Shown one piece after another: positions 4,374 to 19,564 of a stretch of DNA of 37,443 nt. A program made the translations under genes and the position numbers. Origin of the DNA: an uncultured Rhodothermales bacterium (GTDB lineage Bacteria; Bacteroidota; Rhodothermia; Rhodothermales; UBA10348); contig CAZEHJ010000031.1 in assembly GCA_964512485.1 (NCBI GenBank), forward strand, positions 1-37,443, read 5' to 3'. The notes under the pieces were generated by a model. It saw only the letters and a list, made by a program, of their open reading frames with translations. It was not told the origin of the DNA and did not search any database. The stretch's first letter is position 1. Every line of letters starts with the position of its first letter.

Positions 4374-4374
4374 A

Positions 4375-5400
4375 TCAGTTTCGGGCCTCCCGCCAGTTTT
4401 TCATCGCCTGATAAGGCGGTGGCTCCGGAATTTTCACTTCGGGTAGCGCCCCGGACAGGCTTTCCAGGAACGCCACCAGATCATCTAGCTCCGTATCGCT
4501 CAAATCCAGACCATCTCCACGATTATTGTAAAATAAAACCACTTCCTGCAGCGTGGAAAACACGCCATTATGCATGTAGGGACCTGTATCGGCAACCTGA
4601 CGCAGCCCGGGGGTGATGAAGGCCCCCACATCGTCGTAATTCTTGGTTACGATGAACCGGCCGACGTCGCGTCGGGTTTGCATGTATCCCGGAACACCCA
4701 TGTTCTTGATGAACGCGCGATAGGTTGCATGTCGAAGTGGCTCTTCGAATACAGCCACATTTTCCGGTACGCCCGTGTTGTGGGCCATGCCATCGGTGAA
4801 ATCGCTGTCTGAGTGACAGCTGGAGCATGCTGCTTTACCTTCGAAGAGCTGTCGTCCTCGTTCGCCACTTTCGCTCATCGTTCCAAGGTCGTACGGGGAG
4901 TCGCCCGTTGTAAGCGTATTCTGGAAGGCAGCGATAGCTTTGAGTGTGCCACCGAACGATGGCTCAGACCCCAGCGCGTCTTGATACATCTGAACGTACT
5001 CGGGCACCTGTTTCATGCGCTCAAGCAGCAATCGACCGTCGAGATTCAAGAAGTGTGTTTCGGTGATGCCATCCCGAACCAGAGTTTCCACATCCGAGCC
5101 CACAAGTCGGCCGTCCCAGTAGAACGACGCATTGCGACTCACATTCAGCAGCGACTTGGCATTTCGGAACCCATCCGAACCCGGATAGGCTTCCGATAGC
5201 GCTTCACCGTCCGTCCAGGCAAACTCTGGACTGTGACAGGTGGAGCAGCTCATGCTTCCGTCACCGGATAGTCGGGGGTCAAAAAACAGGTAGCGCCCGA
5301 GATCGATCAACGCCTCATTATTGTCTTCTTCAGACTGAGGGTTGACAAAACCGTTGAGCAGCAGGAGAGCGACCGGCAGGAAGATGACGACCGCAAACAA
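4375..5400 (-). CDS. dihaem cytochrome c peroxidase (CCP/MauG) family protein, short type (B1); IdrP-like
   Basis: 341 aa with CSTCHS and CSSCHS motifs and blocks LGRYLFFDPRLSGDGSMSC, ITPGLRQVADTGPYMHNG and LVAFLESLSG. Its stop (4375-4377) is 1 nt from the A1 ATG (TGATATG junction). The start codon at 5398-5400 is TTG, with no in-frame ATG near the N-terminus. The N-terminus is hydrophobic and signal-like. Confidence 0.75.
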   Translation of the reverse strand: MFAVVIFLPVALLLLNGFVNPQSEEDNNEALIDLGRYLFFDPRLSGDGSMSCSTCHSPEFAWTDGEALSEAYPGSDGFRNAKSLLNVSRNASFYWDGRLVGSDVETLVRDGITETHFLNLDGRLLLERMKQVPEYVQMYQDALGSEPSFGGTLKAIAAFQNTLTTGDSPYDLGTMSESGERGRQLFEGKAACSSCHSDSDFTDGMAHNTGVPENVAVFEEPLRHATYRAFIKNMGVPGYMQTRRDVGRFIVTKNYDDVGAFITPGLRQVADTGPYMHNGVFSTLQEVVLFYNNRGDGLDLSDTELDDLVAFLESLSGALPEVKIPEPPPYQAMKNWREARN

Positions 5401-5642
5401 TCGGGGAGTTTTTGAGCACGCTCTGATGGTATTCTCCGGATAAGTTCAGGAATACACATCACGCTCTACAGACTTGAAATGGAGCCGGGTAGGGACTTCC
5501 AAGACGTGACTCGCCTTTCAGAGTTACACGCGCGGAATAAGTTAAATCTCAAGAAAGCAGGGCAATTTTGCAACCGACTTTCGGAGGATTCAGACGGCAG
5601 GGAAACCCCTATTTGCACATCCCTCCAAAAAAGCCCCAATGC

Positions 5643-6848
5643 CTAATTACCACTATTTGCGGGGGTAGCAAAGACGTCATATTCGGGAAGAACCGGACGC
5701 TCGATTTTGATCTCTTCTCCACTCGTACTCTCAAGGAAAGCAACCAGTTGACGTTTTTCCTCATCCGTCAAGCCAAGAGGCTTCAGAAGATCCGAGCGGG
5801 TACTGCTACCGGCCAGCGCTTCGAAATCGTTGGTTCCACCACCATCATTGTAGAAATCAACTACTTCTTCCAATGTGAAAAAAGAACCGTTATGCATGTA
5901 TGGCATTGAGTATTTCAGGTAACGCAGCGGCGCGGTTCTGAATTTCCCCATGTCTTCGGGCTGCTTCGTTCCCAGATACAGTCCGAGGTCGGATTTTACA
6001 ACATCATATATCTCAGGCGGAACGCCTCGACCAAATTGCTGGAAGCGAAACGTGATCTGAATGAGCGGATCAGTGGCAAGCTTCGAATTGTCAGGTACAC
6101 CAACATTGTGGAATTGCTGGTCGGACAGCAGTGGACCGGTGTGACACTGAATACAGGCAGCCTTTCCAAGAAAAAGGCCCATTCCTGCCTTGGCGTCGTC
6201 CGTGAGTGCCGTCTGGTCTCCTCGCATGAAACGATCGAAGGGAGTATCCGGCTGAATAATGGTTCGTTCAAATGCCGAAATCGCCCGCCAGATGTCGTCT
6301 CCTTCCGGCCATTCCGTCCCGAACACTTTCTCGAATCGGTCGACGTATTCAGGAATCTGACGTAGTCTTTCCTCCATCATATCCGGATGGCCGTGTCCTT
6401 CTACTGCGCTTGTGGCAGCGCCTTTCGCCTGGTCTTCCAGTCGGTCGGATCGTCCATCCCAGAAAAGTTGGTCCTGATACGCGGAATTGACCACGGTCGG
6501 ACAATTTCGCCAGTTACCTGTCCCCTGATAGGCCAGACACAGATCCTGTCCGTCACTGAAGCCGAACTCGTCGCTGTGACAATCCGCACAACTGACGGAC
6601 GCATCTCCTGAAAGACGGTTTTCGAAGTAGAGCATTTTGCCGAGCTCAACCTTCGGATCGTCCGAAAGGGGGAATCCGTTTTCGTCTACAGATTGAGGAT
6701 TGTCCGACGGAATCGGGGGGGCTCCAAGAGCCGCAAGAGAAGGCGCCTCCTGCTTCACGGCGCTTACCGAAATCGTAGCAGCGGCGATGACAAAGAGTGC
6801 AAGCACCAAAAACAGTGGGGCGAAAGGAATACGTAGAAGGGCTCTCAT
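5643..6848 (-). CDS. dihaem cytochrome c peroxidase (CCP/MauG) family protein, long type (A2), paralogue of 3183..4373
   Basis: 401 aa with signal peptide. It carries CADCHSDEFGFSDG and CIQCHTGPLL motifs and blocks MGKFRTAPLRYLKYSMPYMHNG and QLVAFLESTSGEEIKIERPVLPEY, nearly identical to A1 blocks. The ATG is verified. Confidence 0.8.
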   Translation of the reverse strand: MRALLRIPFAPLFLVLALFVIAAATISVSAVKQEAPSLAALGAPPIPSDNPQSVDENGFPLSDDPKVELGKMLYFENRLSGDASVSCADCHSDEFGFSDGQDLCLAYQGTGNWRNCPTVVNSAYQDQLFWDGRSDRLEDQAKGAATSAVEGHGHPDMMEERLRQIPEYVDRFEKVFGTEWPEGDDIWRAISAFERTIIQPDTPFDRFMRGDQTALTDDAKAGMGLFLGKAACIQCHTGPLLSDQQFHNVGVPDNSKLATDPLIQITFRFQQFGRGVPPEIYDVVKSDLGLYLGTKQPEDMGKFRTAPLRYLKYSMPYMHNGSFFTLEEVVDFYNDGGGTNDFEALAGSSTRSDLLKPLGLTDEEKRQLVAFLESTSGEEIKIERPVLPEYDVFATPANSGN

Positions 6849-6849
6849 A

Positions 6850-7884
6850 TCAGTTGCTCACCTCTGCCCAGTTTTGACTTACTTCGTATGGGGGCATTTC
6901 CGGCTCTTCAATGTGTGGAATCGTCCCGGAAAGACTCTCCAGAAACGCGATCAGATCAGACGATTCTTCAAGGCTCAAATCCATTCCACCGTCACTGTAG
7001 AAGGCAACTACGTCATCGAGCGTATCAAATATTCCGTTGTGCATGTAGGGCGCGGTGTCCGCGACCTGTCGCAGATCTGGAGTGATGAACGCAGCCCTGT
7101 GCCGCTCGTCTCCCGTTTGGGCCAAATGTCCCGGATCCTCGCGAAGGGACATGTGATCGGGCACGTTGTGATCTTTCAGGTAGAGCCGAAACGCCGTGTG
7201 CCGTAACGGATCGGCGGTGATGTCCGGGTTTTCCGGGACTCTCATGGCATGGGGCAGTCCATCGGTGTATCCCTCGCCGCTGTGACACGAAGCACAATTG
7301 GATTCGAAAACTGCAGATCCGCGCTGTGCAGTTTCACCCATAGGAGTGCTGCCTTGGGTGGTAAGCGTATTCTGAAAGGCTTCCAGAGCCCGGATGGCTC
7401 CTTCATATGAAGGAATTTCAGCCAATGATTGTTCGAAGAGATCCACGTACGCTGGGATCTGCTTCAAACGCTCGGTCAACAGTCTGTCGTTAAGATTCAG
7501 GAACAGTTTGCCGCCGATCATCTCGGCCGTGACGTTGGCCACGGACGCACCTGCAGGGCCGCCATCCCAGTAATAATTAGATCGTTGAGATACATTCAGG
7601 AGCGATTTCGAATTTCTGAAGCCGTCTGCTGCCGGATAGGTTTGAGAGAGCGCCGTGCCGTCAGCCCACGCATGATCTGGGTCATGACACGTGGCACAAC
7701 TGATGCTCGCATCTCCGGAAAGCCGATTGTCGAAAAATAGATACGTTCCCAATTCGACGAGCGCATCCTGATCAACCTGCGGCTGAGGGGTACATCCGTC
7801 CAGTAATAGTGTAAAGAAGGGAACGAGAAGCAATGTCGGGGCAATTCCAAGTCCCGAACGAACGCTAATCGATGGTAAACTCAA
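6850..7884 (-). CDS. dihaem cytochrome c peroxidase (CCP/MauG) family protein, short type (B2), paralogue of 4375..5400
   Basis: 344 aa with CATCHDPDHAWADG and CASCHSGEGYTDG motifs and blocks ITPDLRQVADTAPYMHNG and LIAFLESLSG. The same TGATATG stop/start junction with A2 occurs at 6846-6852. The start at 7882-7884 is TTG, and it overlaps the upstream gene stop by 20 nt. Confidence 0.7.
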   Translation of the reverse strand: MSLPSISVRSGLGIAPTLLLVPFFTLLLDGCTPQPQVDQDALVELGTYLFFDNRLSGDASISCATCHDPDHAWADGTALSQTYPAADGFRNSKSLLNVSQRSNYYWDGGPAGASVANVTAEMIGGKLFLNLNDRLLTERLKQIPAYVDLFEQSLAEIPSYEGAIRALEAFQNTLTTQGSTPMGETAQRGSAVFESNCASCHSGEGYTDGLPHAMRVPENPDITADPLRHTAFRLYLKDHNVPDHMSLREDPGHLAQTGDERHRAAFITPDLRQVADTAPYMHNGIFDTLDDVVAFYSDGGMDLSLEESSDLIAFLESLSGTIPHIEEPEMPPYEVSQNWAEVSN

Positions 7885-8611
7885 AGTTTGACTCTGCGGA
7901 TGATTGGCTGGTTACGGTTACCGTCTGGGTTTGAATTCCAAGTTTTGGGTGCCATACGGATACTTCATAGGTACCCGGAGGGACATCGGAAAGTTGAAAG
8001 TTGCCTGTTTCATCCACCACTGTGGCGTAAGGATTGTCACTGGCAAAAATCCATCCCTGCATGAAATCGTGTGAATCACATTCAAGACTTACGAGGTGAC
8101 TACGCGCAGGATGCAGTACTTGTGGTACGGGGCCGAGATCGGGCTGGCTGATGTTGAAAAGAGAGCGGCGGGCTCGTCCGATCAATTCATATCCATGGAT
8201 ATTGTGCAGGGTCGAATCACTGTTGATGATGTCCATTTCCGAGGCACGGCGCATCACCTGGATGTTGGGCGTGAACGCACACACTTCCTGATTGACAAAC
8301 TCTCCCGGGGCTGCCATATCCCACGATTTTCCCTCGGAGATGTCCTCTATAAACACCACGACGCGTCGAAGGGCTCCGTCGTCTGCAACATCGTATTCCG
8401 TTCTTTCTCTGTAGCCGAGTCCACAGATTTCGGCATCTTTCGTGATCAGAAGTCGAAGAGGGGCCGGAGCATCGCCACCGAACATGACTCGTCCTTCGAT
8501 CGAGCCCCCGTTAGCGACCTCGATTTCTGTGTATTCCTGCGCGAAAGCCGACTGGTCGGACGGAGCAGCCAGGAAAAGAGCGATTGCGAGAATGAGTGAG
8601 GATTTTTTCAT
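7865..8611 (-). CDS. periplasmic cupredoxin-like (type-1 Cu motif) protein with CarbPepD_reg-like beta-sandwich C-terminus
   Basis: I take the start at the internal ATG (8609-8611) that gives the signal peptide MKKSSLILAIALFLAAPSDQSAFA; the ORF track's upstream extension has no sensible N-terminus. This ATG lies 1 nt after the stop of the upstream propeller gene. It contains ...LHNIHG...(about 40 aa)...SLECDSHDFMQGW, i.e. H-x~40-C-x2-H-x2-M. The CxxHxFMxG block resembles the amicyanin Cu-site loop CTPHPFMRG. The C-terminal GTYEVSVWHPKLGIQTQTVTVTS is a CarbPepD_reg-like strand pattern. Confidence 0.55.
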   Translation of the reverse strand: MKKSSLILAIALFLAAPSDQSAFAQEYTEIEVANGGSIEGRVMFGGDAPAPLRLLITKDAEICGLGYRERTEYDVADDGALRRVVVFIEDISEGKSWDMAAPGEFVNQEVCAFTPNIQVMRRASEMDIINSDSTLHNIHGYELIGRARRSLFNISQPDLGPVPQVLHPARSHLVSLECDSHDFMQGWIFASDNPYATVVDETGNFQLSDVPPGTYEVSVWHPKLGIQTQTVTVTSQSSAESNFEFTID

Positions 8612-8612
8612 G

Positions 8613-10034
8613 TTAGTGGCGGATAACTGCTGCTCCCATTCCGGAAGCATATTCCTCTGTTTCGATAACCTTGATGATCTCCTGAGACTCAATATCAATG
8701 ACGAGCACCGTCCCGATATTTGCGTTGTCTCCCAGGTCATACCTCGGATGGTAGACGTGATTTTCCTTGCTGTGTCCTTCAGGCATCGCAAGGTTTCTGT
8801 TTGCAATGTAGACAAATCGGCCATCCGGAGATGCTGCGCTACCATGAGGTTGAGCCAGACCGTTGACCCCCTCGATCACTTTGGCAACTTCACGCTTCTC
8901 CATGTCCAGAATGGTGATCTGATTTGTCCAGTTGTTTCCGAAATACACCCACTTTCCGTCGGCTGTATAAATCGGGTGCCATGGCGCACGACCCACACCG
9001 ATGGTGTCCGTCAATACGACACCTTCAGTCGAGGCCAGGTCGAAAATAAAAGCATTGGAGGTCACTTCAGACGTGCCCACCATGGTCGAACCATCCGGCG
9101 AAATGGTGAATTGGATGAACACGTGCGGCCGATCTCCTTCGATGTCATCAAAAACCAGATCTCCACCCTCGTCGCGATAGGTGGCCACTCGATTCTGAGC
9201 CAGGCTGGAGATGTACACCTCGGATCCATCGTGATTGGTAAGAAGCGCGTGAGGGCGCTGCATCAGCACACCGATTTCCTCCGCTTCCATCGTCTCGCGA
9301 TCAACTTGAACGACGCTTTCTGGCGGAGAAACTGACATCATCGAACGGCCTGCATACAGCCATGGACCGGCTGGGTCCAACGCCAGAAGACCCGGACGAA
9401 CGGCATCGACCTGACCGACCAGATTATTGTCACGATCAAATTTCAGAATCTTGTCGTCCATGATGAGCGACAGATACCAGAACGAACCATCCTGTTCGAC
9501 GGCGATGTGATGCGGCATTGAGAACTCATTGAAACCCAATTCAACGAGATCCACCATACGCACGACCTGATTGGTGTTCATGTCGATGACGGCAACCATA
9601 CCGGCTCCCTGATTGGCGACATACAAGCGAGGGTCATCTGGATCGCTGAACGGAATTTCACCGTCCGATGCTGGAGCACCCTCATCAATCCACGCGGAGA
9701 TGGTTGCGATCTCCTCTTCGGTGAGTGCATCCGATCCCAACTCTTCTGGATGGGATCCCTCCCGATACTTCGTCGCGAGTTCGACGAGAAGGCTGTTATC
9801 GGCATCGTATGCGATAACAGCTTCACCGAAGTCTGAGCCCTGAAAGAGATTCTCCCATGAGTCCAGTCTCAGACCTGAGGCGGCTTCCGGGCCTGCATGG
9901 CACGAGACGCATTTGTTCTGAAAAATAGAATCAACCTCGCTCCAATCTGCCTGTACAGGCTGACGATCAAGCGACCATCCGGCCATCAACAGGATGACCG
10001 ACGCTAGTACAATGGTCTGTCGCAATGAAATCAT
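8613..10034 (-). CDS. PSCyt1-type cytochrome c domain fused to YVTN/cytochrome-d1-like beta-propeller
   Basis: Start is chosen at ATG 10032-10034, giving signal peptide MISLRQTIVLASVILLMAGWSL...VQA. The ORF-track GTG at 10094 would add 20 unlikely residues. The N-terminus IFQNKCVSCHAGPEAASGLRLDSWENL...LTEEEIATISAWIDEGA fits the planctomycete-type cytochrome c (PSCyt1) pattern. The remainder has repeated LYVANQGAGMVAVIDMNTNQVV-type YVTN propeller blades. Confidence 0.7.
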   Translation of the reverse strand: MISLRQTIVLASVILLMAGWSLDRQPVQADWSEVDSIFQNKCVSCHAGPEAASGLRLDSWENLFQGSDFGEAVIAYDADNSLLVELATKYREGSHPEELGSDALTEEEIATISAWIDEGAPASDGEIPFSDPDDPRLYVANQGAGMVAVIDMNTNQVVRMVDLVELGFNEFSMPHHIAVEQDGSFWYLSLIMDDKILKFDRDNNLVGQVDAVRPGLLALDPAGPWLYAGRSMMSVSPPESVVQVDRETMEAEEIGVLMQRPHALLTNHDGSEVYISSLAQNRVATYRDEGGDLVFDDIEGDRPHVFIQFTISPDGSTMVGTSEVTSNAFIFDLASTEGVVLTDTIGVGRAPWHPIYTADGKWVYFGNNWTNQITILDMEKREVAKVIEGVNGLAQPHGSAASPDGRFVYIANRNLAMPEGHSKENHVYHPRYDLGDNANIGTVLVIDIESQEIIKVIETEEYASGMGAAVIRH

Positions 10035-10259
10035 GAAATTAAATGAAAATGGTCCTGTCCAGACGAATATCTGACGACGATAGACGGGTAGCACTAGTTA
10101 CAGTTTCAATTCGACAGAAAATGTGGGATAAACCCTACCCTATCGCCCCGTTGCGTGTCACTTTGATTGACTACGAGACAAACTCCGTGCCTGGGGCGAA
10201 TCCGCCTCTGAAACGTGATTTAGGTTCCCGGCAGTGTTTCAAATTGAGTACAGCGGTGT

Positions 10260-11672
10260 TCAATTCAATCCAACTGAACTCGAATTGGCACCGAAGACTG
10301 TGTCGATCTCGATTCCGCAGTCATTCAGAAAGCCCGTTGGCAAAGTCCCACCGGCAAATATGAACACAAAATCATTCGAAATCGACAGTTCAGTGCCGTC
10401 TTCACCTTCCAAAGTGACATCCCCGTCAGAAATATCAGTCACGTTGGTCTGGAGCATCAGCTGAACTCTTCCATTTTGAACGGCTTCGTCTAAACGGGCT
10501 GAATTGTCCGGCTTGATCCGTGAAAATGAATCCCTACGGTAGGAGAGATGAACCCCAGTGTTCGCTTCACCACACAGGCTTAACGCGGCCTCGACCGCTG
10601 AGTCGCCGCCTCCGACAACCAGAATTCGGTCCCCGGAGAAGTGCGATGGGTCTTTGAGCGAATAAAAAACGTTGGGTCGGTTTTCGCCGGATACTCCAAT
10701 TTTTCGCGGGATCCCCCTGCGACCGATCGCCAGAACCACATTTTGTGCCCGATATGAATTGGTCGAAGAGGTAATCTCGAAATACTCCGCACCCACTTTT
10801 TGGACTGAGTGAATCATCTCGTGAACCTGAACCTGAAGGCCACATTCTTCAACAACACCCGTCCACAATTGCAATAATTCTTCCTTCAGATATTCCCTTG
10901 ACGTCATGGAGGTTGCGTCGGTAAGTCTCATGGGCTCAGTCATCACCAGCTTTTTTCGAGGGTAATTGAGGACCGTGCCTCCGATATCATCTTTTTCAAT
11001 TACCAGATAGTTCAGGCCCTTTCGATGTGCTTCGAGAGCAGCCGCGAGACCAGCGGGTCCACATCCAACGATCAGGAGGTCGAGAATCTCTGAATTCAGC
11101 TCGGGTGTTATCTGTTCAACACACTGTCGACCTTGTTCGAATGCGTTGCGGATCAATCCCATCCCGCCAAGTTCGCCGACAACGAAAAGTCCGGGCACAT
11201 TCGTTTCGAAGTTTTCCTTGATGCGGGGAAGGTCTACTCCTCGTTTGGAAGTTCCGAACACGAGCTGAATAGCATCGACCGGACATGAACGCTCGCACAA
11301 TCCGTGGCCAATACACCGAGCTGGAGAAACCGGTATGGCCTGCCCCGAAATCAGTCCGAGAACATTTTTTTCAGGACAGACGCTCACACAATTCCCGGTG
11401 CCAATGCACTGATCCGGGTTGACGACGGGATGGAGGGATGCTGGCCGATACAGCCCGAGTTCCAGAGATTCTGCCTGAGCATCGATTACTGCGCGTTCCT
11501 GCCGGACCATGCGCACGACGTACGGCAGGACGAAAATCGCCGCCAGCACAAAGAATATCAGCCATATCAAAAGTGTCGAACTCAGAAGCTGATGCCATAG
11601 TTGATGAAAAAAGTAGAGGATGTTACGCTCGAACTCAGGTGGGCGCGTTGCCTGATGGACAGGTATCCCCAC
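10260..11672 (-). CDS. membrane-anchored 2x[4Fe-4S] ferredoxin domain fused to TrxR-like FAD/NAD(P)-binding oxidoreductase (ferredoxin-NAD(P)+ reductase-like)
   Basis: Two CxxCxxCxxxCP motifs are present (CIGTGNCVSVCP, CIGHGLCERSCP). Dinucleotide folds LIVGCGPAGLAAALEA (FAD) and ILVVGGGDSAVEAA (NAD(P)H) are present, with no CxxC redox disulfide. There is an N-terminal TM helix LLSSTLLIWLIFFVLAAIFVLPYVV. The start is uncertain: the ORF-track start is GTG at 11672 and overlaps the upstream OM-protein gene by 90 nt. A TTG (codon 35) just after that gene's stop, or the ATG at 11510, are alternatives. The TM helix lies between the OMP stop and ATG 11510, arguing for an upstream start. Confidence 0.65.
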   Translation of the reverse strand: MGIPVHQATRPPEFERNILYFFHQLWHQLLSSTLLIWLIFFVLAAIFVLPYVVRMVRQERAVIDAQAESLELGLYRPASLHPVVNPDQCIGTGNCVSVCPEKNVLGLISGQAIPVSPARCIGHGLCERSCPVDAIQLVFGTSKRGVDLPRIKENFETNVPGLFVVGELGGMGLIRNAFEQGRQCVEQITPELNSEILDLLIVGCGPAGLAAALEAHRKGLNYLVIEKDDIGGTVLNYPRKKLVMTEPMRLTDATSMTSREYLKEELLQLWTGVVEECGLQVQVHEMIHSVQKVGAEYFEITSSTNSYRAQNVVLAIGRRGIPRKIGVSGENRPNVFYSLKDPSHFSGDRILVVGGGDSAVEAALSLCGEANTGVHLSYRRDSFSRIKPDNSARLDEAVQNGRVQLMLQTNVTDISDGDVTLEGEDGTELSISNDFVFIFAGGTLPTGFLNDCGIEIDTVFGANSSSVGLN

Positions 11673-13177
11673 TTGTCCATGCGGAATCGTACCGATGCGC
11701 CGGCAATGTGTGACAGGGCCAACGGGCCAAGCTGATCAACTGCAAGAAGAGAGTATTCTAACCCGAGAGTAAGTCTTCGGAGTTCTTTTTGAAAAGAAGT
11801 GGAGCTGTATAAGGTGCGCCCTCCGGGACGCTCGAACACACTTGTTGAATTGGAAATCCGAAATGGCATCCAGCCTGGTTGCGTCCGGAACGATGCCGTT
11901 ACAGAGTTGCTCTTTTCTGAGCCCGAAAACGAATTGGATGACACGGTTAGCCCCACAAGATGGGTTCGTTTTTGCCAGGTTATCCCCGCAGAGGTCTGAT
12001 TTTTCCTGGCCGAGTAGCTTGCGTCGGTTCGCCAGTATGGGAAGTATTGTCTCGATCCATACCGGCCTGAAAGCCTCAAGGTCTCCGATATGGGCGAGCT
12101 CGCTCGAACGTAAAATCGACTGACATCCCATTTTCCGTCGATAGGTGACTCGTCGATCTGTAGGGAGGTGCTCAGGCGTGTCCTCCCGAGTCGGGATTTT
12201 TGTTCAATGGAAATAAAGGAATAGGGTCGAAGCATCCGGCTTCCATCGATTCGAGTAAAAGCAGTCATCAAGGAGGTTGATCCTCCAGTGTGTTTTTTGC
12301 TCACATCTGAAAAGACGGAAATCTTATTGATGTCAGTCTGGAAGGCTTCACTGTATCGATCCGGTTCAAATCCACCCGATACTCCGAAAAGGAAATCACC
12401 GGTTTTGAACGAAACATTGAGGCCATCCCAATATCCCCCTGCCGGGGTGTGACGCTCTCTGAAACGTCCGGCTTCCAGCGACAATCCCGAGGAGATCTGG
12501 CTCTGATATTTGAGCTCGTACATCCTGAAGGATCCTGAGCGAGAGACGAGGTCTTGCGAACTGAATCGCCTCGATCCCCTGGCACTGAACATGAAGCGGC
12601 CACTACCCGGAAGTCCTTCCACGCGCATTCTCAACGATGAAACTGGATTCATGTACTGGCGAGAAGACGAACGTGTGTCGGTGAATTGGCCTTTGACCTC
12701 AGAGACCGAAGCGGTCAGCGAAGCGCTGTAATACCCGTGGACCTGCACACCCGACGATCTTGGGTCGGTCCGAACACCAACCGGACGTCCGAGAATGCTC
12801 CGACGCTCTTCAGCCAGATCGAGGTCTTGTTCAGGTCCGTGCTCTTTTCGCGGGCCAACCAGGACGAGTTCATTTCCCACTTCCAGCGACAGAGGGTCCA
12901 AAAGCCAGACCAGAAGGAGAGACGTCGATGACTTACCCGCAACACGGGAAAGAGCCCGTGTATCCTCATTTTGAAGCACCATCAGCGTGTCGCCCCGTTC
13001 CCACTGCGCATCACTGACATCGACATAGATGCCTCGGGCCTGGACCCGGCTCACCACCACCCTGAGGGAATCGGTCTCGCTACGTGAATCTGTGGGCGAT
13101 TGGGCCGTCGCATCATTCGCAATGAGGAAGCAGACCATAATCGTCGCAAGGAGTCGGAGCTTAATCATCGTCGTCAT
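11582..13177 (-). CDS. putative outer-membrane beta-barrel protein (porin-like), signal peptide, C-terminal Phe
   Basis: 531 aa with signal peptide MTTMIKLRLLATIMVCFLIANDATAQ (ATG verified). Alternating hydrophobic/polar beta-strand pattern throughout, and a C-terminal ...TFFINYGISF ending in aromatic F, typical of OM barrels. I recognise no specific family. Confidence 0.6.
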   Translation of the reverse strand: MTTMIKLRLLATIMVCFLIANDATAQSPTDSRSETDSLRVVVSRVQARGIYVDVSDAQWERGDTLMVLQNEDTRALSRVAGKSSTSLLLVWLLDPLSLEVGNELVLVGPRKEHGPEQDLDLAEERRSILGRPVGVRTDPRSSGVQVHGYYSASLTASVSEVKGQFTDTRSSSRQYMNPVSSLRMRVEGLPGSGRFMFSARGSRRFSSQDLVSRSGSFRMYELKYQSQISSGLSLEAGRFRERHTPAGGYWDGLNVSFKTGDFLFGVSGGFEPDRYSEAFQTDINKISVFSDVSKKHTGGSTSLMTAFTRIDGSRMLRPYSFISIEQKSRLGRTRLSTSLQIDESPIDGKWDVSRFYVRASSPISETLRLSGRYGSRQYFPYWRTDASYSARKNQTSAGITWQKRTHLVGLTVSSNSFSGSEKSNSVTASFRTQPGWMPFRISNSTSVFERPGGRTLYSSTSFQKELRRLTLGLEYSLLAVDQLGPLALSHIAGASVRFRMDKWGYLSIRQRAHLSSSVTSSTFFINYGISF

Positions 13178-14261
13178 CCTCCTTCCCGTCCGGATGGCAA
13201 CTCAGGCACGCGAGACTCTCGTACACGTAATCCGGTTCGTCATCGTGCTCGTCATCCATCTTGTCCTTACGATGTTCATGACAATCGATACACGTGAAGC
13301 TGGTCATATCGGGGGCTGCTTGATGGCAGTCTGAGCAATTATCCCATTCTCCTTTGTGCTCACCGGAATAGATGGGGAAAAATGGAGCATCGTGATCAAA
13401 ATCCGAGGCACCGTCCCAATCATTCTGATTGTGACACTCAAGACAATTCAGCGGAAATCCGGAATTGCGATGTTCGTCTTCATAGTCGGCTTGATGACAG
13501 GCGTAGCAGTCGTTCTGGTCCAGAGCAGCAAACACAAGCTCAAACGAGGGTTGGATATGACAGCTTTCGCATCCCGCAAACTCGTGTGCCCCAATCAGTT
13601 CAAATCCGTCTGAAAGGAGTGAGTGTTCGGGGAATATGGCGTCCGGCCAGACGTGTTGTGTGTGACAGTCCTCACACTCCTGCGAGAATCCATTCTCTTC
13701 GTGGGGGATGACCGTCGTTTCGAGATAGGCTGATTCGTGGCACGTGATACAGGTGGGCTGGTCCCCGAAGTACCACCCTCCCAAATCGTCGTCATGACAA
13801 CTTTCGCAGGCGATGACTTCGTGCGATCCGATGAGGGGAAACGACGTGTCCAGATGTATCGCGAATCCGTCGATGTCACGGAAGGAACGTTCATTATGGC
13901 AGGTCTCACATGTGGGGACCAGCTTCGAATTATGAACATCTTCGTGACAATCCGCACATTCCCGAATGATGGCCGATTCTGGCTCGAATTCCAGGCCTGA
14001 ATGACATGAAGCACATGCCGCTGTCTCGTGTGCAGCCAAAAGGGCGAACGCTGCGTCATTTTCATGATCGAAAGCGGCCTGCGGATCCATCGGTGTCCAG
14101 GCATTGGACGAATGGCAGTCGCTACACGCGATTGTCGTGTCCCAATCACCGTGAGGGCTGTCTATCGGGTTGTCTTGTGCAGAGGACTGGCTGGCCCCCA
14201 TCAACGCCGAAAAGATCAGACAGAATATTGTCACTCTTTTTCTCATGGAGTTATTCTTCAT
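13161..14261 (-). CDS. multihaem c-type cytochrome, 13 CxxCH motifs, signal peptide, poly-Asp C-terminus
   Basis: 366 aa. I counted 13 CxxCH motifs, many in the paired arrangement FDHx...PLxGxHx...CxxCH. The protein ends ...CLSCHPDGKEDDDDD. The ATG is verified, and its start overlaps the upstream gene stop by 11 nt. Confidence 0.85.
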   Translation of the reverse strand: MKNNSMRKRVTIFCLIFSALMGASQSSAQDNPIDSPHGDWDTTIACSDCHSSNAWTPMDPQAAFDHENDAAFALLAAHETAACASCHSGLEFEPESAIIRECADCHEDVHNSKLVPTCETCHNERSFRDIDGFAIHLDTSFPLIGSHEVIACESCHDDDLGGWYFGDQPTCITCHESAYLETTVIPHEENGFSQECEDCHTQHVWPDAIFPEHSLLSDGFELIGAHEFAGCESCHIQPSFELVFAALDQNDCYACHQADYEDEHRNSGFPLNCLECHNQNDWDGASDFDHDAPFFPIYSGEHKGEWDNCSDCHQAAPDMTSFTCIDCHEHRKDKMDDEHDDEPDYVYESLACLSCHPDGKEDDDDD

Positions 14262-15951
14262 TTTCGTTTCCTCCGCTGTGACAATCTTTGCATTCTGTTT
14301 TTACACCACGGTACTGCACAATCATTTCTCCGCGACTATCCCCTTGTTCCTTGTGGCAACTGGCGCAGGAGACATCCGTGTGAGCTCCTTCGAGAGGCCA
14401 GCCGCTCAGATCATGGTCAAAAGCGGTCAACCGGAATGACACATCGTCATGGCACGTGGCACAGCTCGTTGCTTCAAACTGGCTACCGTGTGGGTTTTCG
14501 TCTTCGTGACAGGAAGCGCAAGAAGAGTCCAGTTCCCGGTATTCCACGATGTCCAGATCCGTTTGTGTGTGGCAGGACGAACAGGCGATTATTGCATGTG
14601 AGCCTGCGAGAGGGAATTCTGTACTCGAATGATCAAATGACGAAGACGCTTCGATCCATGATTCGACGGCGTGACAACTATCACAGGTCTCTGGCGAGAA
14701 TTGTTGTTCGTGTGGATCATCTTCCAGGTGACAACCCTCGCATGTTTGATCCTCAACTTCGAACGAGATATGCGAGATAGCCTCCCCGGATGCCGGAATG
14801 TGGCACTGGGCGCATAGTACGGCCATGTGCGCCCCTTCTAGCGGGTATTCCGTCTCTTCCTGATGGCGAAAAACATCAAACTCAGACGGTGCCCAACCAA
14901 ATTCAGTGTGACAAGAAACACACCCTACGGGATCTGTACTTCCGTCATGATTGTCCACGTGGCAACTTTCACAGGCTTCTGCAACGGGGTGTGGATACTG
15001 ATTGCTCAGCGTACTCCGGATGAACTGAATCGAAATCTCGGGTAGCGTTTCCGAATCGTTGTGGCATGAAGCACAGGTAGCGGATTCATGAAGACCGATA
15101 AGTGGGAATTCCGTGACATCGTGGTCGAATGTTGTTTCGAAGTCAGAGGCCGCGATGGAATTCCATCCAGTGGTGGCGTGACAGGATGCGCACGTCGAGC
15201 CAAATGTGCCTGCATGAACATCTTCGTGGCAAGCCGAGCACTCGGCGAATTCCAGCGGTTTGTAAACAACGACATCGGGATTGCCCGTAGCAGGCTCATG
15301 ACACGTCTCGCATGAAAGGTCGAAATGTTCACCGGTCAACGGATATTCTGAGTCATCATGATCAAACAGAGGCACCTCTTCCCAGACCCCGCTGTCATGG
15401 CAGGTACTGCACGCTACCAGCTCAAATTGTGATTCATGAACGTTGTCCGGGCCATGACACGATTCGCAATCCTCAATCAATCCCAGAAAGGTGGGTTCAG
15501 AGACGACATGTTGAGATTGGAAGACCAGGAAATTTTGATCTGACAGATTCTCTCCGGAATGACAGGACAGGCAACTGGTCTCCTCGTGGCTCAACAGCAG
15601 CTCGTATCCTGTTGCTTCGTGGTCGAAGCTCAGCGTGTCGAATCGAATGGAATCGAAATCTCTTCCGAAGTGGTCCTTGTGACAGGTTGCACAGTTCGGC
15701 TCATCGAACGTTGCATGCAGGCCCAGGCCATCATTCATCCTGCTTTCCAACGAAAAATGACAGTTCAGGCATAGTGAATCGCTGATGCCACGGTTTCCCA
15801 ATTCGTGGCAAGTAGTGCAAGATTCGATGGTATCCCAGACTTCGTGATCCTGAATCAGTTCACCGGGTGAAATGAGTTGAGCATACGCGTTGGCCGGGGC
15901 CAGAGCTACGACAACCAAAATCAGGACAGTTATGTGGGCACGGTTCAGCAT
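14251..15951 (-). CDS. multihaem c-type cytochrome, 20 CxxCH motifs, signal peptide
   Basis: 566 aa with signal MLNRAHITVLILVVVALAPANAYAQ (ATG verified). I counted 20 CxxCH motifs, with repeated FDH...E[FY]PL.G.H...C.SCH modules. Confidence 0.85.
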   Translation of the reverse strand: MLNRAHITVLILVVVALAPANAYAQLISPGELIQDHEVWDTIESCTTCHELGNRGISDSLCLNCHFSLESRMNDGLGLHATFDEPNCATCHKDHFGRDFDSIRFDTLSFDHEATGYELLLSHEETSCLSCHSGENLSDQNFLVFQSQHVVSEPTFLGLIEDCESCHGPDNVHESQFELVACSTCHDSGVWEEVPLFDHDDSEYPLTGEHFDLSCETCHEPATGNPDVVVYKPLEFAECSACHEDVHAGTFGSTCASCHATTGWNSIAASDFETTFDHDVTEFPLIGLHESATCASCHNDSETLPEISIQFIRSTLSNQYPHPVAEACESCHVDNHDGSTDPVGCVSCHTEFGWAPSEFDVFRHQEETEYPLEGAHMAVLCAQCHIPASGEAISHISFEVEDQTCEGCHLEDDPHEQQFSPETCDSCHAVESWIEASSSFDHSSTEFPLAGSHAIIACSSCHTQTDLDIVEYRELDSSCASCHEDENPHGSQFEATSCATCHDDVSFRLTAFDHDLSGWPLEGAHTDVSCASCHKEQGDSRGEMIVQYRGVKTECKDCHSGGNENEE

Positions 15952-15957
15952 CAGATT

Positions 15958-16578
15958 CTATTGCCGTTCGTCGAGGCGTCTCAATGAACTGCTGACCATC
16001 GACTTGACAGCTTCATCGGTAACCGTTTCTTCAAGGCCCTTCCAGATGCTTTGAGCTTCGGCGAAATCGCCGGAATTAGCTGATATGGCACCCAGATTGT
16101 ATATGGCGAATTCATCTCCGGGATATACGTCGAGCATCTCGCGAACCGCTTCTTTGGCCAAATCCCATTTTTCGTCCACCGCTCTTGTCGCCGCCAGATC
16201 GAGCCAGACCTGCCTCGCTCTCGGGTGTTGCAACAGGTAATTGGAATAGTGCATATCCGCGTCTTCCAACCGATGACTGTCCTGAAGCACTCTGCCGAGT
16301 TCGCGCATCGCCAACGTGTCGGCGGGGTTTGTTCTTATCTGTTCTTCCAGGACAAAAATCCTCTGGAAGTACGCGTCAGATACGTTTTCACTCGACGGTG
16401 CGCTTCCGACGGATGAGGAATTTGGCGTGCCAGGAAGTATCCCCGCCGGTGTGTCCGGATGGACAAAACCATCCTGGAGGACCGAAGAATCGACGCCGGA
16501 AACGAAAATAAAATAGAATCCAACAATGAGTAGCGGGAGAGCTACTGCAATCATCAGACGATAACGAGATGGGCTCAT
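15958..16578 (-). CDS. membrane-anchored tetratricopeptide-repeat (TPR) protein
   Basis: 206 aa with N-terminal TM LMIAVALPLLIVGFYFIFV. TPR-like helices follow (AMRELGRVLQDSHRLEDADMHYSNYLLQHP, VWLDLAATRAVDEKWDLAKEAVREML, YNLGAISANSGDFAEAQSIW). Its ATG overlaps the TGA of the upstream membrane protein (ATGA at 16575-16578). Confidence 0.6.
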   Translation of the reverse strand: MSPSRYRLMIAVALPLLIVGFYFIFVSGVDSSVLQDGFVHPDTPAGILPGTPNSSSVGSAPSSENVSDAYFQRIFVLEEQIRTNPADTLAMRELGRVLQDSHRLEDADMHYSNYLLQHPRARQVWLDLAATRAVDEKWDLAKEAVREMLDVYPGDEFAIYNLGAISANSGDFAEAQSIWKGLEETVTDEAVKSMVSSSLRRLDERQ

Positions 16579-17441
16579 GTGATCCAGAAATATCCAAACG
16601 TGAACGCGACACCGATATGTAACAGCATGATGGCAAGCATTATCAGTGCGAGAGGAAGGTGAAATACATGCCAGTATCCGAACAGGCGCTGAAAAACCCC
16701 GCTTACCGACGTCTGCTGTACCAAATTTTGATAATCCATGACTCGCCGAACAAACACGATGGATTCCGTGTCGGCCATTCCATCGCTGCGGGCCATGAGC
16801 AGAAGGGCCTTTCTTCGAGTCGAAATGCTCAGATCTCGTTTGATCGCTGCCAACAGTCGGGACATCCAGCCATCACCGATTTGTGGGCCTGCGGTCTCGC
16901 GAACAAATTCAGAAACTCTTGAATCAGCGACGTTATGATACTCCTTTATGGAGTGAAGCAGATGTTTCTGGCGAGCCAACAGCGCGCTTTCGGACAGAAA
17001 CTGACCGTCCGTCGCTTTTGGAATGCGAACGTAAATGTATCGGCCAAATATTCCTGAAAGAACTACGGCAATCATGCTCCAGAAGGCGATGGAAATTACA
17101 CCACCAAATCTGAAAGCAGTGTGCAAAAGCACCAGCCAGGGACCGAGTGTACAGAGAAAGATGTGAATGGTGAGCCAGTTTCGGAGCTGCCCACTCTGTT
17201 CAAATCTCCGTACCCGCTTTCGAACACTGTACATGGCGACCCCCACAATCATCATCAGGCTGCCGATGATTCCCATACCGTGTCCAATGAAACCGGAGGG
17301 TTTGTAGAGTTCGTGGAGGTCAGAGTACGCCCGATCGTGCAGAGGAAGCGTGTAGTATTCAAGACCCGCGGCAAGGCTGACAATTGCGACCAAAAGCCAG
17401 ATGGAAGTCAGCGCTATGTGTTTGACAGTCTTTCCCGACAT
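16575..17441 (-). CDS. integral membrane protein, putative dihaem b-type cytochrome (quinol-interacting anchor)
   Basis: 288 aa with about 5 TM helices. Two helices each carry a His-x13-His pair (H93/H107 in LTIHIFLCTLGPWLVLLHTAF; H261/H275 in HVFHLPLALIMLAIMLLHIGVAF). This is the same spacing as the bis-His haem ligands of cytochrome b. The ATG is verified. Function is inference only. Confidence 0.55.
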   Translation of the reverse strand: MSGKTVKHIALTSIWLLVAIVSLAAGLEYYTLPLHDRAYSDLHELYKPSGFIGHGMGIIGSLMMIVGVAMYSVRKRVRRFEQSGQLRNWLTIHIFLCTLGPWLVLLHTAFRFGGVISIAFWSMIAVVLSGIFGRYIYVRIPKATDGQFLSESALLARQKHLLHSIKEYHNVADSRVSEFVRETAGPQIGDGWMSRLLAAIKRDLSISTRRKALLLMARSDGMADTESIVFVRRVMDYQNLVQQTSVSGVFQRLFGYWHVFHLPLALIMLAIMLLHIGVAFTFGYFWIT

Positions 17442-17620: not shown

Positions 17621-19039
17621 TCACTTTCCGATCCAGTCAGGATTGGGAGAGGGCATCTTCGCGTCGACTTCGAGTCGCCAGGCATTCATCAGGCTGAAAA
17701 GCGAGTCTGCCAATTGGGGAAACTCAGACGACAGGTTGACTTGCTCTTCTTCGTCTTGCTGCAAGTCGTATAGTTCAAGCTCACCCGTTTCGAACCACTC
17801 TATGAGCTTGTATCGACCCGAAATCATCGAACCAGATGGTCGATTTCCCGATCCGTGATAATGGGGAAAATGGAAATACTTGGATCGCTCCCCTGACTCT
17901 TCCACCACGGATATTCCATCGAAGCCATCTCCTTCGATTCCGGCGAGGTCCAGAAGGGTGGGGACGACATCAACTGTCGAACCGATGTCGGATCTTATGC
18001 TCGGAGTTGGAGACGTTGGGTCGTGGATGATGAACGGGATGCGAACGCCGCCTTCGTACAAGTAACCCTTTCCGGCGCGCAAGGGGCGATTCGAGGTGGG
18101 GCCTGTTTCCCGTCCCCGGTTCAGCGAGCTGAGGCCTCCGTTGTCAGAAACGAAAACAACGGCAGTATTGTCGTCAAGTCCAAGAAGCCTCATCGAGTCC
18201 ATGAGAATGCCGATCCCTTCGTCAGTACTCTCAACCATCGCAGCATAGGCTGCATTGCCCTGACAAGTTCGGGTGCTGGACCACCGAGGATCGTTGTCAA
18301 ACACTGCTTCTGCGCACTTTTCAGTAAATCCGTCACGCTCCCGTACGGCAGCAGTCATCTCTTCCTTGGCCTGAATCGGAGTATGAACGGCATAGTGTGA
18401 CAGAACCAGGAAAAATGGCTGATCCGCGTGATTTTCGAGGAATGCCACCGCTTCGTTAGTCAAACGGTCGGTGAGATACTCGCCAGGTTCACCGTCTTCG
18501 AGATGAGGGACATCCCAATAAGAGCTGTCTTCACGCTTGTAGGGCCAAAAATAGGATGCAGGCTGTCCAGCGTGGTGTCCGCCCACATTTATGTCGAATC
18601 CCTGATCTTCGGGATAGAACCCTTCGCTTCCCAGGTGCCACTTTCCGATGAATCCTGTTGCATACCCCGCCTCCTTGAAGCGTTCGGCGACGGTGATCTC
18701 TTCAAGCGGCAGCTGGCGTTGGTAGTCTGCCTGAAGGAGCTGTCCTTTTTGGGAGCCGCCGATCCAGTTAGTGATGTCCAGGCGGGCGGGGTGTTTGCCC
18801 GTCATGAGCGCCGCTCGAGTCGGCGAACAGACCGGGCTGTCGGAATAGAAGTTGGTGAACCGGATTCCGTTGGTCGCAAGTTCGTCAATTCTGGGAGTCC
18901 GATACAGTTCGCTGCCCGAAACCGAAAGGTCCTTCCATCCAAGATCATCGACGATAATCAGCACGACGTTTTTTGGTGCCGGGGCACCGCAGGAGGCTAC
19001 CATCACTGACAATATTGCCAGATTGAGACGCAGGGACAT
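17621..19039 (-). CDS. sulfatase family lipoprotein (Cys-type formylglycine sulfatase, arylsulfatase-like)
   Basis: 472 aa with lipoprotein signal MSLRLNLAILSVMVASC. It carries the sulfatase signature CSPTRAALMTGKHPARL (C-x-P-x-R), DDLGWKDL near the N-terminus, and GKWHLG. The ATG is verified. Confidence 0.8.
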   Translation of the reverse strand: MSLRLNLAILSVMVASCGAPAPKNVVLIIVDDLGWKDLSVSGSELYRTPRIDELATNGIRFTNFYSDSPVCSPTRAALMTGKHPARLDITNWIGGSQKGQLLQADYQRQLPLEEITVAERFKEAGYATGFIGKWHLGSEGFYPEDQGFDINVGGHHAGQPASYFWPYKREDSSYWDVPHLEDGEPGEYLTDRLTNEAVAFLENHADQPFFLVLSHYAVHTPIQAKEEMTAAVRERDGFTEKCAEAVFDNDPRWSSTRTCQGNAAYAAMVESTDEGIGILMDSMRLLGLDDNTAVVFVSDNGGLSSLNRGRETGPTSNRPLRAGKGYLYEGGVRIPFIIHDPTSPTPSIRSDIGSTVDVVPTLLDLAGIEGDGFDGISVVEESGERSKYFHFPHYHGSGNRPSGSMISGRYKLIEWFETGELELYDLQQDEEEQVNLSSEFPQLADSLFSLMNAWRLEVDAKMPSPNPDWIGK

Positions 19040-19045
19040 TTGAAT

Positions 19046-19564
19046 TCAACTCTGGTTTTTAGGAATCAGGCGACCGCGGTCTATCCGATAGTTGTTGCGG
19101 ATATCTTCATCTGACATGCCTTTCTCCACCAGATCGGCGAGGTCCCGTCGAAGCGTGGCAGCATGAGTGACATCTTCCAGCGTGAAGCGATCCAGTTGGA
19201 TTATCGATGCGGTATGCAGTTCTCGCCTTTGTGCCTCTATGGCCGTCATGATGGCGGCGGGTAAGTGGTCTGCGTCCGTTGTTTCCGGAATGGAATGTGG
19301 ATCAAAGGTCATATCGGCTTCGATCACGTCTGCGATCTGGCCAAGCGTCGTGCTGGCGGGGTCTGCTTTGAGCGATATTCCGCCTCCGTACCCTCTTTTG
19401 GTTTCGATCAGACCCGCCTTTGCCAGATCTCCGACAAGCCGTCTGATTACGACGGGATTCGTACCGAGTTGTTTGGCAAGAGAAGTCGATGACACACGCG
19501 CAGATGGGTCAGCGGATAGACTGACGAGAATGTGCAGTGCTGTTGAGAATCGCGTGTTGGCCAT
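19046..19564 (-). CDS. Rrf2 family transcriptional regulator (cysteine-free, so not an Fe-S sensor)
   Basis: 172 aa. The N-terminal wHTH MANTRFSTALHILVSLSADPS...SSTSLAKQLGTNPVVIRRLVGDLAKAGLIETKRGYGGGISL is typical of Rrf2/BadM. There are no Cys residues at all. The ATG is verified. It lies 6 nt upstream of the sulfatase gene. Confidence 0.75.
   Translation of the reverse strand: MANTRFSTALHILVSLSADPSARVSSTSLAKQLGTNPVVIRRLVGDLAKAGLIETKRGYGGGISLKADPASTTLGQIADVIEADMTFDPHSIPETTDADHLPAAIMTAIEAQRRELHTASIIQLDRFTLEDVTHAATLRRDLADLVEKGMSDEDIRNNYRIDRGRLIPKNQS

Follow-up and report, generated by a model that had tools for sequence, protein, structure and literature searches.

What does a small membrane protein do at the head of a row of multihaem cytochrome genes, and from where would it draw its electrons? 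The question is raised by a stretch of 37,443 nucleotides from an uncultured Rhodothermales bacterium (assembly GCA_964512485.1, contig CAZEHJ010000031.1, positions 1 to 37,443; this whole stretch is called the window), in which the gene of an inner-membrane protein, here IMP, precedes two genes for multihaem c-type cytochromes on the minus strand. An earlier note, made from the letters alone, took IMP for a dihaem cytochrome b that anchors these cytochromes to the quinone pool. In this study I show that the histidines behind that proposal are strongly conserved, that IMP carries the marks of a class of inner-membrane proteins from the porin-cytochrome clusters PCC3 and PCC4, and that its gene is accompanied in most related loci by that of a predicted membrane-anchored iron-sulphur (FeS) flavoprotein. 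The IMP gene and the parts of it on which the argument rests are the following, with TM standing for transmembrane:

16575..17441, minus strand: gene of IMP, a predicted dihaem cytochrome b of the PCC3/PCC4-IMP type (288 aa, 5 TM helices).
17118..17180, minus strand: TM3 with W89-x3-H93-x13-H107 (His codons 17165-17163 and 17123-17121).
17043..17057, minus strand: the motif S129-G130-x-x-G133 on TM4 (here S129-G130-I-F-G133), a defining motif of PCC3/PCC4 IMPs.
16683..17033, minus strand: basic helical insert of about 115 aa between TM4 and TM5, predicted to be cytoplasmic (DSSP helices 151-219 in the model).
16599..16679, minus strand: TM5 with W257-x3-H261-x13-H275 (His codons 16661-16659 and 16619-16617).

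The open reading frame (ORF) runs on the minus strand from the ATG at 17441 to the TGA at 16577-16575, and the plus strand is interrupted by many stops across the same interval (16575-17441). A hydropathy scan places five TM helices at approximately residues 9-29, 52-72, 88-108, 115-136 and 255-281, and an AlphaFold2 model computed from 48 homologues shows the same five (mean pLDDT 88.3, pTM 0.81). Two of these helices do carry the His-x13-His pairs that had first drawn attention to the protein, H93 and H107 on TM3 and H261 and H275 on TM5, the members of each pair being 14 positions apart. Two TM helices with an H-x13-H pair each are expected by chance in 0.12% of cases when the whole protein is shuffled, and in 0.18% when its six His are placed randomly in TM positions.

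Conservation was assessed in a close alignment of the 48 homologues (39-81% identity) and in a wide alignment of 121 sequences, consisting of the window protein and 120 cluster representatives at 26-45% identity. H93, H107, H258, H261, H275, W89, W257, S129, G130 and G133 are invariant across the 48 homologues, among which the sequence of the insert between TM4 and TM5 is poorly conserved. In the wide alignment the four paired His are retained nearly throughout (H93 in 120, H107 in 121, H261 in 113 and H275 in 112 of the 121 sequences), as is the SGxxG motif (S129 in 119, G130 in 120 and G133 in all 121), the Trp residues being less strict (W89 in 109/121, W257 in 116/121). H54 and H258 were also weighed as haem ligands but set aside: another residue stands in place of H54 in 50 of the 121 sequences, and H258 is less conserved in the wide alignment and missing in proteobacterial homologues.

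The conservation is strongly periodic on TM2, TM3, TM4 and TM5. The His of TM3 lie at 19 and 59 degrees from the conserved face of their helix and those of TM5 both at 20 degrees, and conserved faces of small residues occur on TM2 (G53, G57, G60) and TM4 (M123, V126, G130, G133). As far as can be judged from sequence, this is the pattern expected of a helix bundle that encloses a cofactor, and it argues against His residues that face the lipid. The charges of the connecting segments, averaged over the 48-sequence alignment, are markedly uneven: the loop between TM2 and TM3 has 5.8 K+R against 0.2 D+E and the insert 18.5 against 11.5, the loop between TM1 and TM2 having 2.2 K+R and 2.6 D+E. Under the positive-inside rule this bias puts the N-terminus, loop 2-3 and the insert in the cytoplasm, so that H93 and H261 would lie in the cytoplasmic leaflet, H107 and H275 in the periplasmic one. 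The topology check that the earlier note had proposed thus found the His on conserved faces of TM3 and TM5, with one His of each pair near each membrane surface, which on these predictions is the arrangement that two stacked bis-His haems need. The insert could possibly serve as a docking surface.

In cytochrome b of the bc1 complex, two H-x13-H helices hold one haem of low and one of high potential, placed in opposite leaflets. Two helices with an H-x13-H pair each are the signature of bc1 cytochrome b and of the ferric-reductase domain (established knowledge; He et al. 2017, PMC5566968). The earlier note had compared the spacing with bc1, NarI and FdnI, of which only the comparison with bc1 stands, as in Escherichia coli the His of NarI (56/66 and 187/205) form no H-x13-H pair and FdnI has only one such pair (155/169). 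Apart from this spacing IMP shares nothing with bc1 cytochrome b, which has eight helices against the five of IMP; neither Qo or Qi motifs nor Rieske or c1 partners are present in the IMP operon, and IMP has no Pfam, NCBIfam or PDB sequence match to bc1/b6f cytochrome b.

A much closer precedent is the conserved inner-membrane protein of PCC3 and PCC4, described as having about 300 aa and five TM helices, of which TM4 carries SGxxG and TM3 and TM5 each carry Wx3Hx13H, and proposed to bind two b haems and to communicate with the quinone pool (He et al. 2017, PMC5566968). The dihaem idea was therefore already known for this class; in later papers PCC3 is still 'functionally unverified' and its IMP hypothetical. 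The protein of the window shows all these marks, with 288 aa, five TM helices, Wx3Hx13H twice, SGxxG, and a porin and two multihaem cytochromes in its cluster, and by all tested marks, compared by the published description, it belongs to the PCC3/PCC4-IMP class. The clusters are also alike in composition: each has a porin together with two multihaem cytochromes, one conserved, of about 20 haems and presumed to be periplasmic, the other variable. However, the published hosts are Proteobacteria (for PCC4 also Planctomycetes), whereas the family described here occurs in Gemmatimonadota, Rhodothermales, Balneolales, Ignavibacteria, Chlorobiota and Bacteroidota, and to the four genes described for PCC3 it adds a conserved FeS-FAD oxidoreductase and often a tetratricopeptide repeat (TPR) protein.

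Named relatives of IMP are scarce. A word-indexed search returned more than 860 homologues, none of them functionally named, and a HMMER profile search of cluster representatives 4,141 at E <= 0.001 and 657 at E <= 1e-30; NCBIfam has no family for the protein, and searches of PDB sequences with the single protein and with the 48-sequence profile gave nothing relevant. The best Pfam match is DUF4405 (PF14358; residues 58-110, E 0.0038, 18.1 bits and so below the gathering threshold of 26.7), followed by Ni_hydr_CYTB (PF01292; E 0.029, 14.6 bits, below the threshold of 30.1), and both fall on TM2-TM3. These weak matches recur in 37 (DUF4405, best E 5e-5) and 15 (Ni_hydr_CYTB) of the 48 family members. 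Ferric_reduct (PF01794) has no Pfam match to the window IMP, and one to a relative at E 0.0015. A DUF4405 protein has been purified, was shown to bind haem b by pyridine haemochrome assay and was proposed as a transmembrane electron carrier (Light laboratory, PMC11334425); its six TM helices and its flavinylated ApbE substrates as partners set it apart from the five helices and multihaem cytochromes of the IMP system.

The best structural match of the IMP model in the PDB is the dihaem protein CybB, and STEAP4, cytochrome b561, Dcytb, FdnI and NOX5 are also among the matches; by Foldseek no match in the PDB is significant. CybB and FdnI differ from IMP in that only one of their helices carries H-x13-H and each of their two remaining ligands comes from a helix of its own, and the cytochrome b561/Ni_hydr_CYTB family as a whole (CybB, FdnI, HyaC and the b-type domain of Geobacter CbcL) is without the cytoplasmic insert of 115 aa, the fifth helix and the SGxxG of IMP. 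Taken together, the conserved His, the helix faces, the leaflet placement, the fold match to CybB and the weak DUF4405 matches give the candidate dihaem cytochrome b good, though indirect, support, and IMP very probably binds two b-type haems.

The more consequential observation concerns the input side, where another gene of the window comes into play:

10260..11672, minus strand: membrane-anchored FeS and FAD/NAD(P)H oxidoreductase (here the FeS-FAD protein), with one N-terminal TM helix, a ferredoxin-like domain and a TrxR/Bdr/FNR-like flavoprotein domain.

The FeS-FAD protein matches Pyr_redox_3 at 2.5e-51 and, in addition, Fer4 domains, and its true start is probably downstream of the listed GTG. 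Its nearest solved relatives in the PDB are the NADPH-dependent Bdr/YpdA and ferredoxin-NADP reductases of the TrxR type. At the N-terminus of homologues a single TM helix lies between a short acidic end and a basic segment, and because this arrangement comes with no twin-arginine (Tat) motif, the cofactor domains are expected to face the cytoplasm. The ferredoxin-like domain (residues 81-130 of the 470-aa ORF) is without the usual eight Cys; invariant in 51 homologues are C89-x5-C95-x3-C99-P and C120-x2-H123-x2-C126-x3-C130-P, and H81 is kept in 48 of them. This pattern predicts one site with three Cys ligands, possibly for a 3Fe-4S cluster, and one with three Cys and a His. His-ligated FeS clusters are typically found at the exit of an electron-transfer chain. 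The segment TNVPGLFVVGE (residues ~151-170) aligns with the C-terminal FAD-binding GD motif of Bdr and TrxR (chain residues 276-294), and as it precedes the first Rossmann GxGxxG, the flavoprotein domain looks circularly permuted with respect to its solved relatives.

In a scan of one genome per species, relatives of IMP were found in at least 581 genomes, from Gemmatimonadota, Rhodothermales, Balneolales, Ignavibacteria, Melioribacteraceae, Chlorobiota and several orders of Bacteroidota. Neighbourhoods were counted in 80 related loci, and the co-occurrence of the two genes also in the 42 of these that extend at least 9 kb beyond the IMP start. The FeS-FAD gene lies on the IMP strand in 55 of the 80 loci and accompanies IMP in 40 of the 42 long ones. 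It does so in three gene orders: behind the gene of an outer-membrane barrel, the order of the window, in Gemmatimonadota and Rhodothermales; immediately behind IMP and separated from it by a few bases in Bacteroidota and Ignavibacteria; and immediately in front of IMP, with an overlap of 4 nt, in one divergent member. The two proteins are about equally conserved, with median identities of 45% (FeS-FAD protein) and 42% (IMP). The co-inheritance of the FeS flavoprotein with IMP suggests that IMP is fed from NAD(P)H rather than from quinol. In the literature searched on clusters in Bacteroidota, Ignavibacteria and Gemmatimonadota, in which porin-cytochrome clusters themselves are reported, no IMP-flavoprotein pair has been described.

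Independent support for such a pairing comes from distant homologues of IMP on plasmids of Alteromonas macleodii and Qipengyuania citrea, which at 25-30% identity keep H93, H107, SGxxG, W257, H261 and H275 and are of a short, porin-less type. They start at the last base of a preceding gene for an FNR-type flavoprotein and are followed by a small multihaem cytochrome. The preceding gene encodes a membrane-anchored protein with FAD_binding_6, NAD_binding_1 and 2Fe-2S domains that is unrelated to the FeS-FAD protein of the window; judged by sequence, two unrelated classes of NAD(P)H-type FeS flavoproteins are recruited beside the IMP module. On the Alteromonas macleodii plasmid pAM1A3 (locus L088, 7974-12693) the triad of flavoprotein, IMP and cytochrome is directly upstream of structural and maturation genes of a [NiFe]-hydrogenase, which hints at a link with hydrogen metabolism.

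Two members of a 418-aa protein, P0224, from JGI and Logan contigs, join TM1-4 and part of the insert of IMP to the C-terminal Pyr_redox_3 part of the flavoprotein. This candidate fusion was rejected as Rosetta-stone evidence and treated as a deletion or chimaera, as both TM5 and the FeS domain are missing; a deletion that joined two neighbouring genes is a more probable origin than a functional fusion.

Cultured carriers are Rubrivirga sp. IMCC45206 (locus L061) and Emticicia oligotrophica DSM 17448, the latter on plasmid pEMTOL02, which suggests horizontal mobility and a tractable test organism. The Emticicia cluster (locus L086, 8896-20694) contains IMP, the FeS-FAD protein, two large cytochromes and, in the position of the porin, a hypothetical protein of 538 aa, and a ccsA gene for cytochrome c biogenesis (1028 aa) lies immediately before the cluster.

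On the output side, the genes between IMP and the FeS-FAD protein are these:

15958..16578, minus strand: TPR protein with an N-terminal membrane anchor, its TPR domain probably periplasmic (TPR_14 and TPR_19 matches, weak TPR_CcmH_CycH).
14251..15951, minus strand: 20-haem c-type cytochrome with a Sec signal (20 CxxCH; Cytochrom_c3_2, Cytochrome_C7 and MtrC-like domain matches).
13161..14261, minus strand: 13-haem c-type cytochrome (13 CxxCH).
11582..13177, minus strand: outer-membrane beta-barrel of 531 aa (model with a signal helix, a small N-terminal beta domain and ~22 long strands; C-terminal Phe).

The TGA of IMP overlaps the start of the TPR ORF as ATGA, from which translational coupling had been proposed. 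The overlap is present, but gene callers on two of the three public contigs with an identical protein prefer an ATG nine codons later, which gives a protein of 197 aa and a gap of 20 nt. The TPR gene was detected in 31 of the 80 related loci, and its product is possibly a scaffold or a helper in cytochrome maturation. The two cytochrome genes after it contain 20 and 13 CxxCH motifs, so that the earlier count of 33 c-type haems holds. A counterpart of the 20-haem cytochrome, of conserved size and with 17 or 20 haems, is located downstream of IMP in nearly every related locus, and the protein is presumed to be the periplasmic wire; the counterparts of the 13-haem cytochrome have 10 to 61 haems, and this protein is presumed to be an outer or extracellular cytochrome. 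The model of the barrel resembles large outer-membrane barrels, including MtrB, and the closest named homologue of the protein is from 'Bacteroidetes Order II'. The membrane-to-periplasm path that had been called complete in the earlier note would consequently reach further than the periplasm, as a 22-strand outer-membrane barrel follows the cytochromes.

From these parts the following mechanism can be proposed. IMP would be a transmembrane electron conduit with two b haems held between TM3 and TM5, one per leaflet, of which the haem on the cytoplasmic side would be ligated by H93 and H261 and that on the periplasmic side by H107 and H275. The FeS-FAD protein (11672..10260) would be its most likely cytoplasmic partner, taking electrons from NAD(P)H via FAD and two FeS centres. 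The periplasmic-side haem b would pass them to the 20-haem cytochrome, and from there they could proceed through the 22-strand barrel with the 13-haem cytochrome to an extracellular acceptor. The whole would amount to an oxidase of the NOX or MsrQ/Fre kind, split into subunits and joined to a porin-cytochrome wire, with no need for quinone. Motifs, conservation, charge-based topology, fold resemblance, gene linkage and barrel are what the analysis shows; haem binding, the pairing of the His, contact between the subunits, the use of NAD(P)H and the outward direction are deduced from them. IMP resembles the ferric-reductase proteins (NOX, FRE, MsrQ with Fre) in having its His pairs on TM3 and TM5, whereas the ferric-reductase domain has six TM helices instead of five, its reductase is an FNR-type domain instead of a TrxR-like flavoprotein with FeS, and the acceptor here is a multihaem cytochrome. 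I regard this split path, NAD(P)H to FAD, FeS, haem b, haem b, 20-haem cytochrome and finally barrel and 13-haem cytochrome, as evenly poised between right and wrong. The broader proposal, of a quinone-independent electron export across Bacteroidota, Ignavibacteria, Gemmatimonadota and Rhodothermales (at least 581 species-level genomes) by an NAD(P)H-FAD-FeS reductase, a five-helix dihaem b and a porin-cytochrome wire, with the module paired independently with an FNR-type reductase in Proteobacteria, is put forward more tentatively and falls somewhat short of even chances.

Several observations weigh against this mechanism. As to IMP itself, all Pfam matches of the family are below the gathering thresholds, a Foldseek comparison of the model with the PDB gave no significant match (best E 0.5), and hhalign of the family profile against single E. 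coli sequences gave E 0.045 and a probability of 1% for CybB and was likewise not significant for MsrQ. The CybB alignment puts the W-H...H helix of CybB on TM5 of IMP, which at this level is suggestive only. The remote-homology search that the earlier note had called for thus produced a weak but recurrent resemblance to DUF4405, and no threshold-level or significant match to CybB or MsrQ. As to the partnership, the FeS-FAD gene is not within reach in 2 of the 42 long loci, and gene linkage is no proof of contact between the two proteins. Outward flow of electrons from NAD(P)H, moreover, dissipates membrane potential and conserves no energy by itself, and would therefore be an odd main respiratory route; should the NAD(P)H model hold, an outlet that balances redox state or reduces metals would be likelier than a respiratory step that conserves energy. 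Finally, the proteobacterial PCC3 clusters are described as four genes without a flavoprotein (He et al. 2017, PMC5566968, and later papers), so that the IMP of those clusters must use quinone or a partner encoded elsewhere.

This last point leads to the alternative that survives best, in which IMP acts as a quinol:cytochrome oxidoreductase: the dihaem b would oxidise menaquinol, or reduce menaquinone in the inward direction, and so link the quinone pool with the multihaem chain, by analogy with the proposed role of the b-type domain of Geobacter CbcL or with FdnI in reverse, and the FeS flavoprotein would serve some other step. The same dihaem evidence applies to it, the best structural match (CybB) and the weak Ni_hydr_CYTB matches, a family that includes FdnI, point to quinone-reactive proteins, and a role of this kind has already been published for the PCC3/PCC4 IMP class (He et al. 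2017), whose proteobacterial clusters are reported without a flavoprotein gene. However, no quinone-site motif is known for the IMP family, and a quinol site on the periplasmic side would need one haem only. The quinol reading also leaves unexplained why a membrane-anchored NAD(P)H-type FeS flavoprotein stays beside IMP through three gene orders, and why unrelated FNR-type FeS flavoproteins stand beside the distant homologues. The anchoring to the quinone pool that the earlier note had proposed has no measured support, and the co-inherited FeS-FAD oxidoreductase points elsewhere; quinone is a less likely input than the FeS flavoprotein, and I consider the quinol alternative possible and rather doubtful.

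Alternatively, the conduit may work inwards, as has been proposed for PCC3 of iron oxidisers: Fe(II), a cathode or a partner cell outside would supply electrons, which would pass through barrel and cytochromes to the b haems and on to quinone or to the FeS flavoprotein. If quinone received them, membrane potential would be built up, as it is by FdnI. The architecture is workable in both directions, Fe(II) oxidisers are among the carriers of PCC3, and in Sideroxydans CL21 the gain of iron oxidation is accompanied by a rise of the IMP gene of one PCC3 copy. Flow direction is not readable from sequence, but electrons from Fe(II) would have to go steeply uphill to reduce NAD(P)+, and their inward movement opposes the membrane potential (established bioenergetics), and the hosts of the present family, being Rhodothermales-like bacteria, Gemmatimonadota, Ignavibacteria and Bacteroidota, are mostly not known as iron oxidisers, which makes uptake improbable as the function of this family. 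The weakest alternative is that IMP is an accessory of haem handling or cytochrome maturation, its TM His binding haem transiently, as in CcsBA and CcmF, to serve the 33 sites, with the TPR protein in an NrfG/CcmH-like role; the weak TPR_CcmH_CycH match of that neighbour, the position of the Emticicia cluster next to ccsA and the established knowledge that invariant TM His are also typical of haem exporters speak for it, but IMP has neither a match to a cytochrome c assembly family nor a tryptophan-rich WWD loop, the dihaem protein that its fold matches best carries electrons, most of the 80 loci are without the TPR gene and the conserved FeS-FAD partner would go unexplained, so that I consider it very improbable.

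The remaining genes around the cluster do not appear to belong to it. Upstream of IMP on the same strand (17621-19564, minus) are a sulfatase gene and a gene for an Rrf2-family regulator, with 179 nt between sulfatase and IMP; both were rejected as parts of the system, as among the 80 related loci weak sulfatase matches occur in 3 and Rrf2 in none. Scans for sigma-70 promoters and terminators gave counts equal to the shuffled expectation and were uninformative on the limits of the operon. The genes downstream of the FeS-FAD gene (a cytochrome c-beta-propeller, four paralogues of the cytochrome c peroxidase (CCP)/MauG family and a Tat-Rieske protein) were likewise rejected, being absent from the 80 loci.

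The first of these, at 8613-10094 (minus) and 165 nt downstream of the FeS-FAD gene, encodes a monohaem cytochrome c (PSCyt1-like) fused to a beta-propeller; the product has weak similarity to lactonase-type NosZ and to the beta subunit of hydrazine synthase. This gene is overlapped by 233 nt by the longest ORF at 7865-8845 (minus; 326 aa, with a 261-aa start on identical contigs), whose product has a C-terminal beta-sandwich domain like CarboxypepD_reg. Four tandem dihaem CCP/MauG genes follow at 3183-7884 (minus), of 344, 401, 341 and 396 aa and of two alternating subtypes, and these probably form a separate system. A small Rieske 2Fe-2S protein with a Tat signal is encoded at 2632-3186 (minus), with no recognisable catalytic partner gene adjoining it in the window.

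Of all steps in extracellular electron transfer, the passage of electrons out of the inner membrane is understood least outside Shewanella and Geobacter. The IMP module is very widespread in the FCB group of phyla, and the co-inherited FeS flavoprotein offers a concrete and testable partner for a protein which, in its PCC3-type form, has been a hypothesis since 2017; what is new relative to the literature searched is the FCB-wide variant with its conserved flavoprotein. The cultured carriers bring the question within reach of the bench. If the partnership is true, cytoplasmic reducing power could pass straight to minerals, humics or partner cells, bypassing the quinone pool, and this would change how energy yield and redox balancing are modelled in these organisms, and how such clusters are read in metagenomes.

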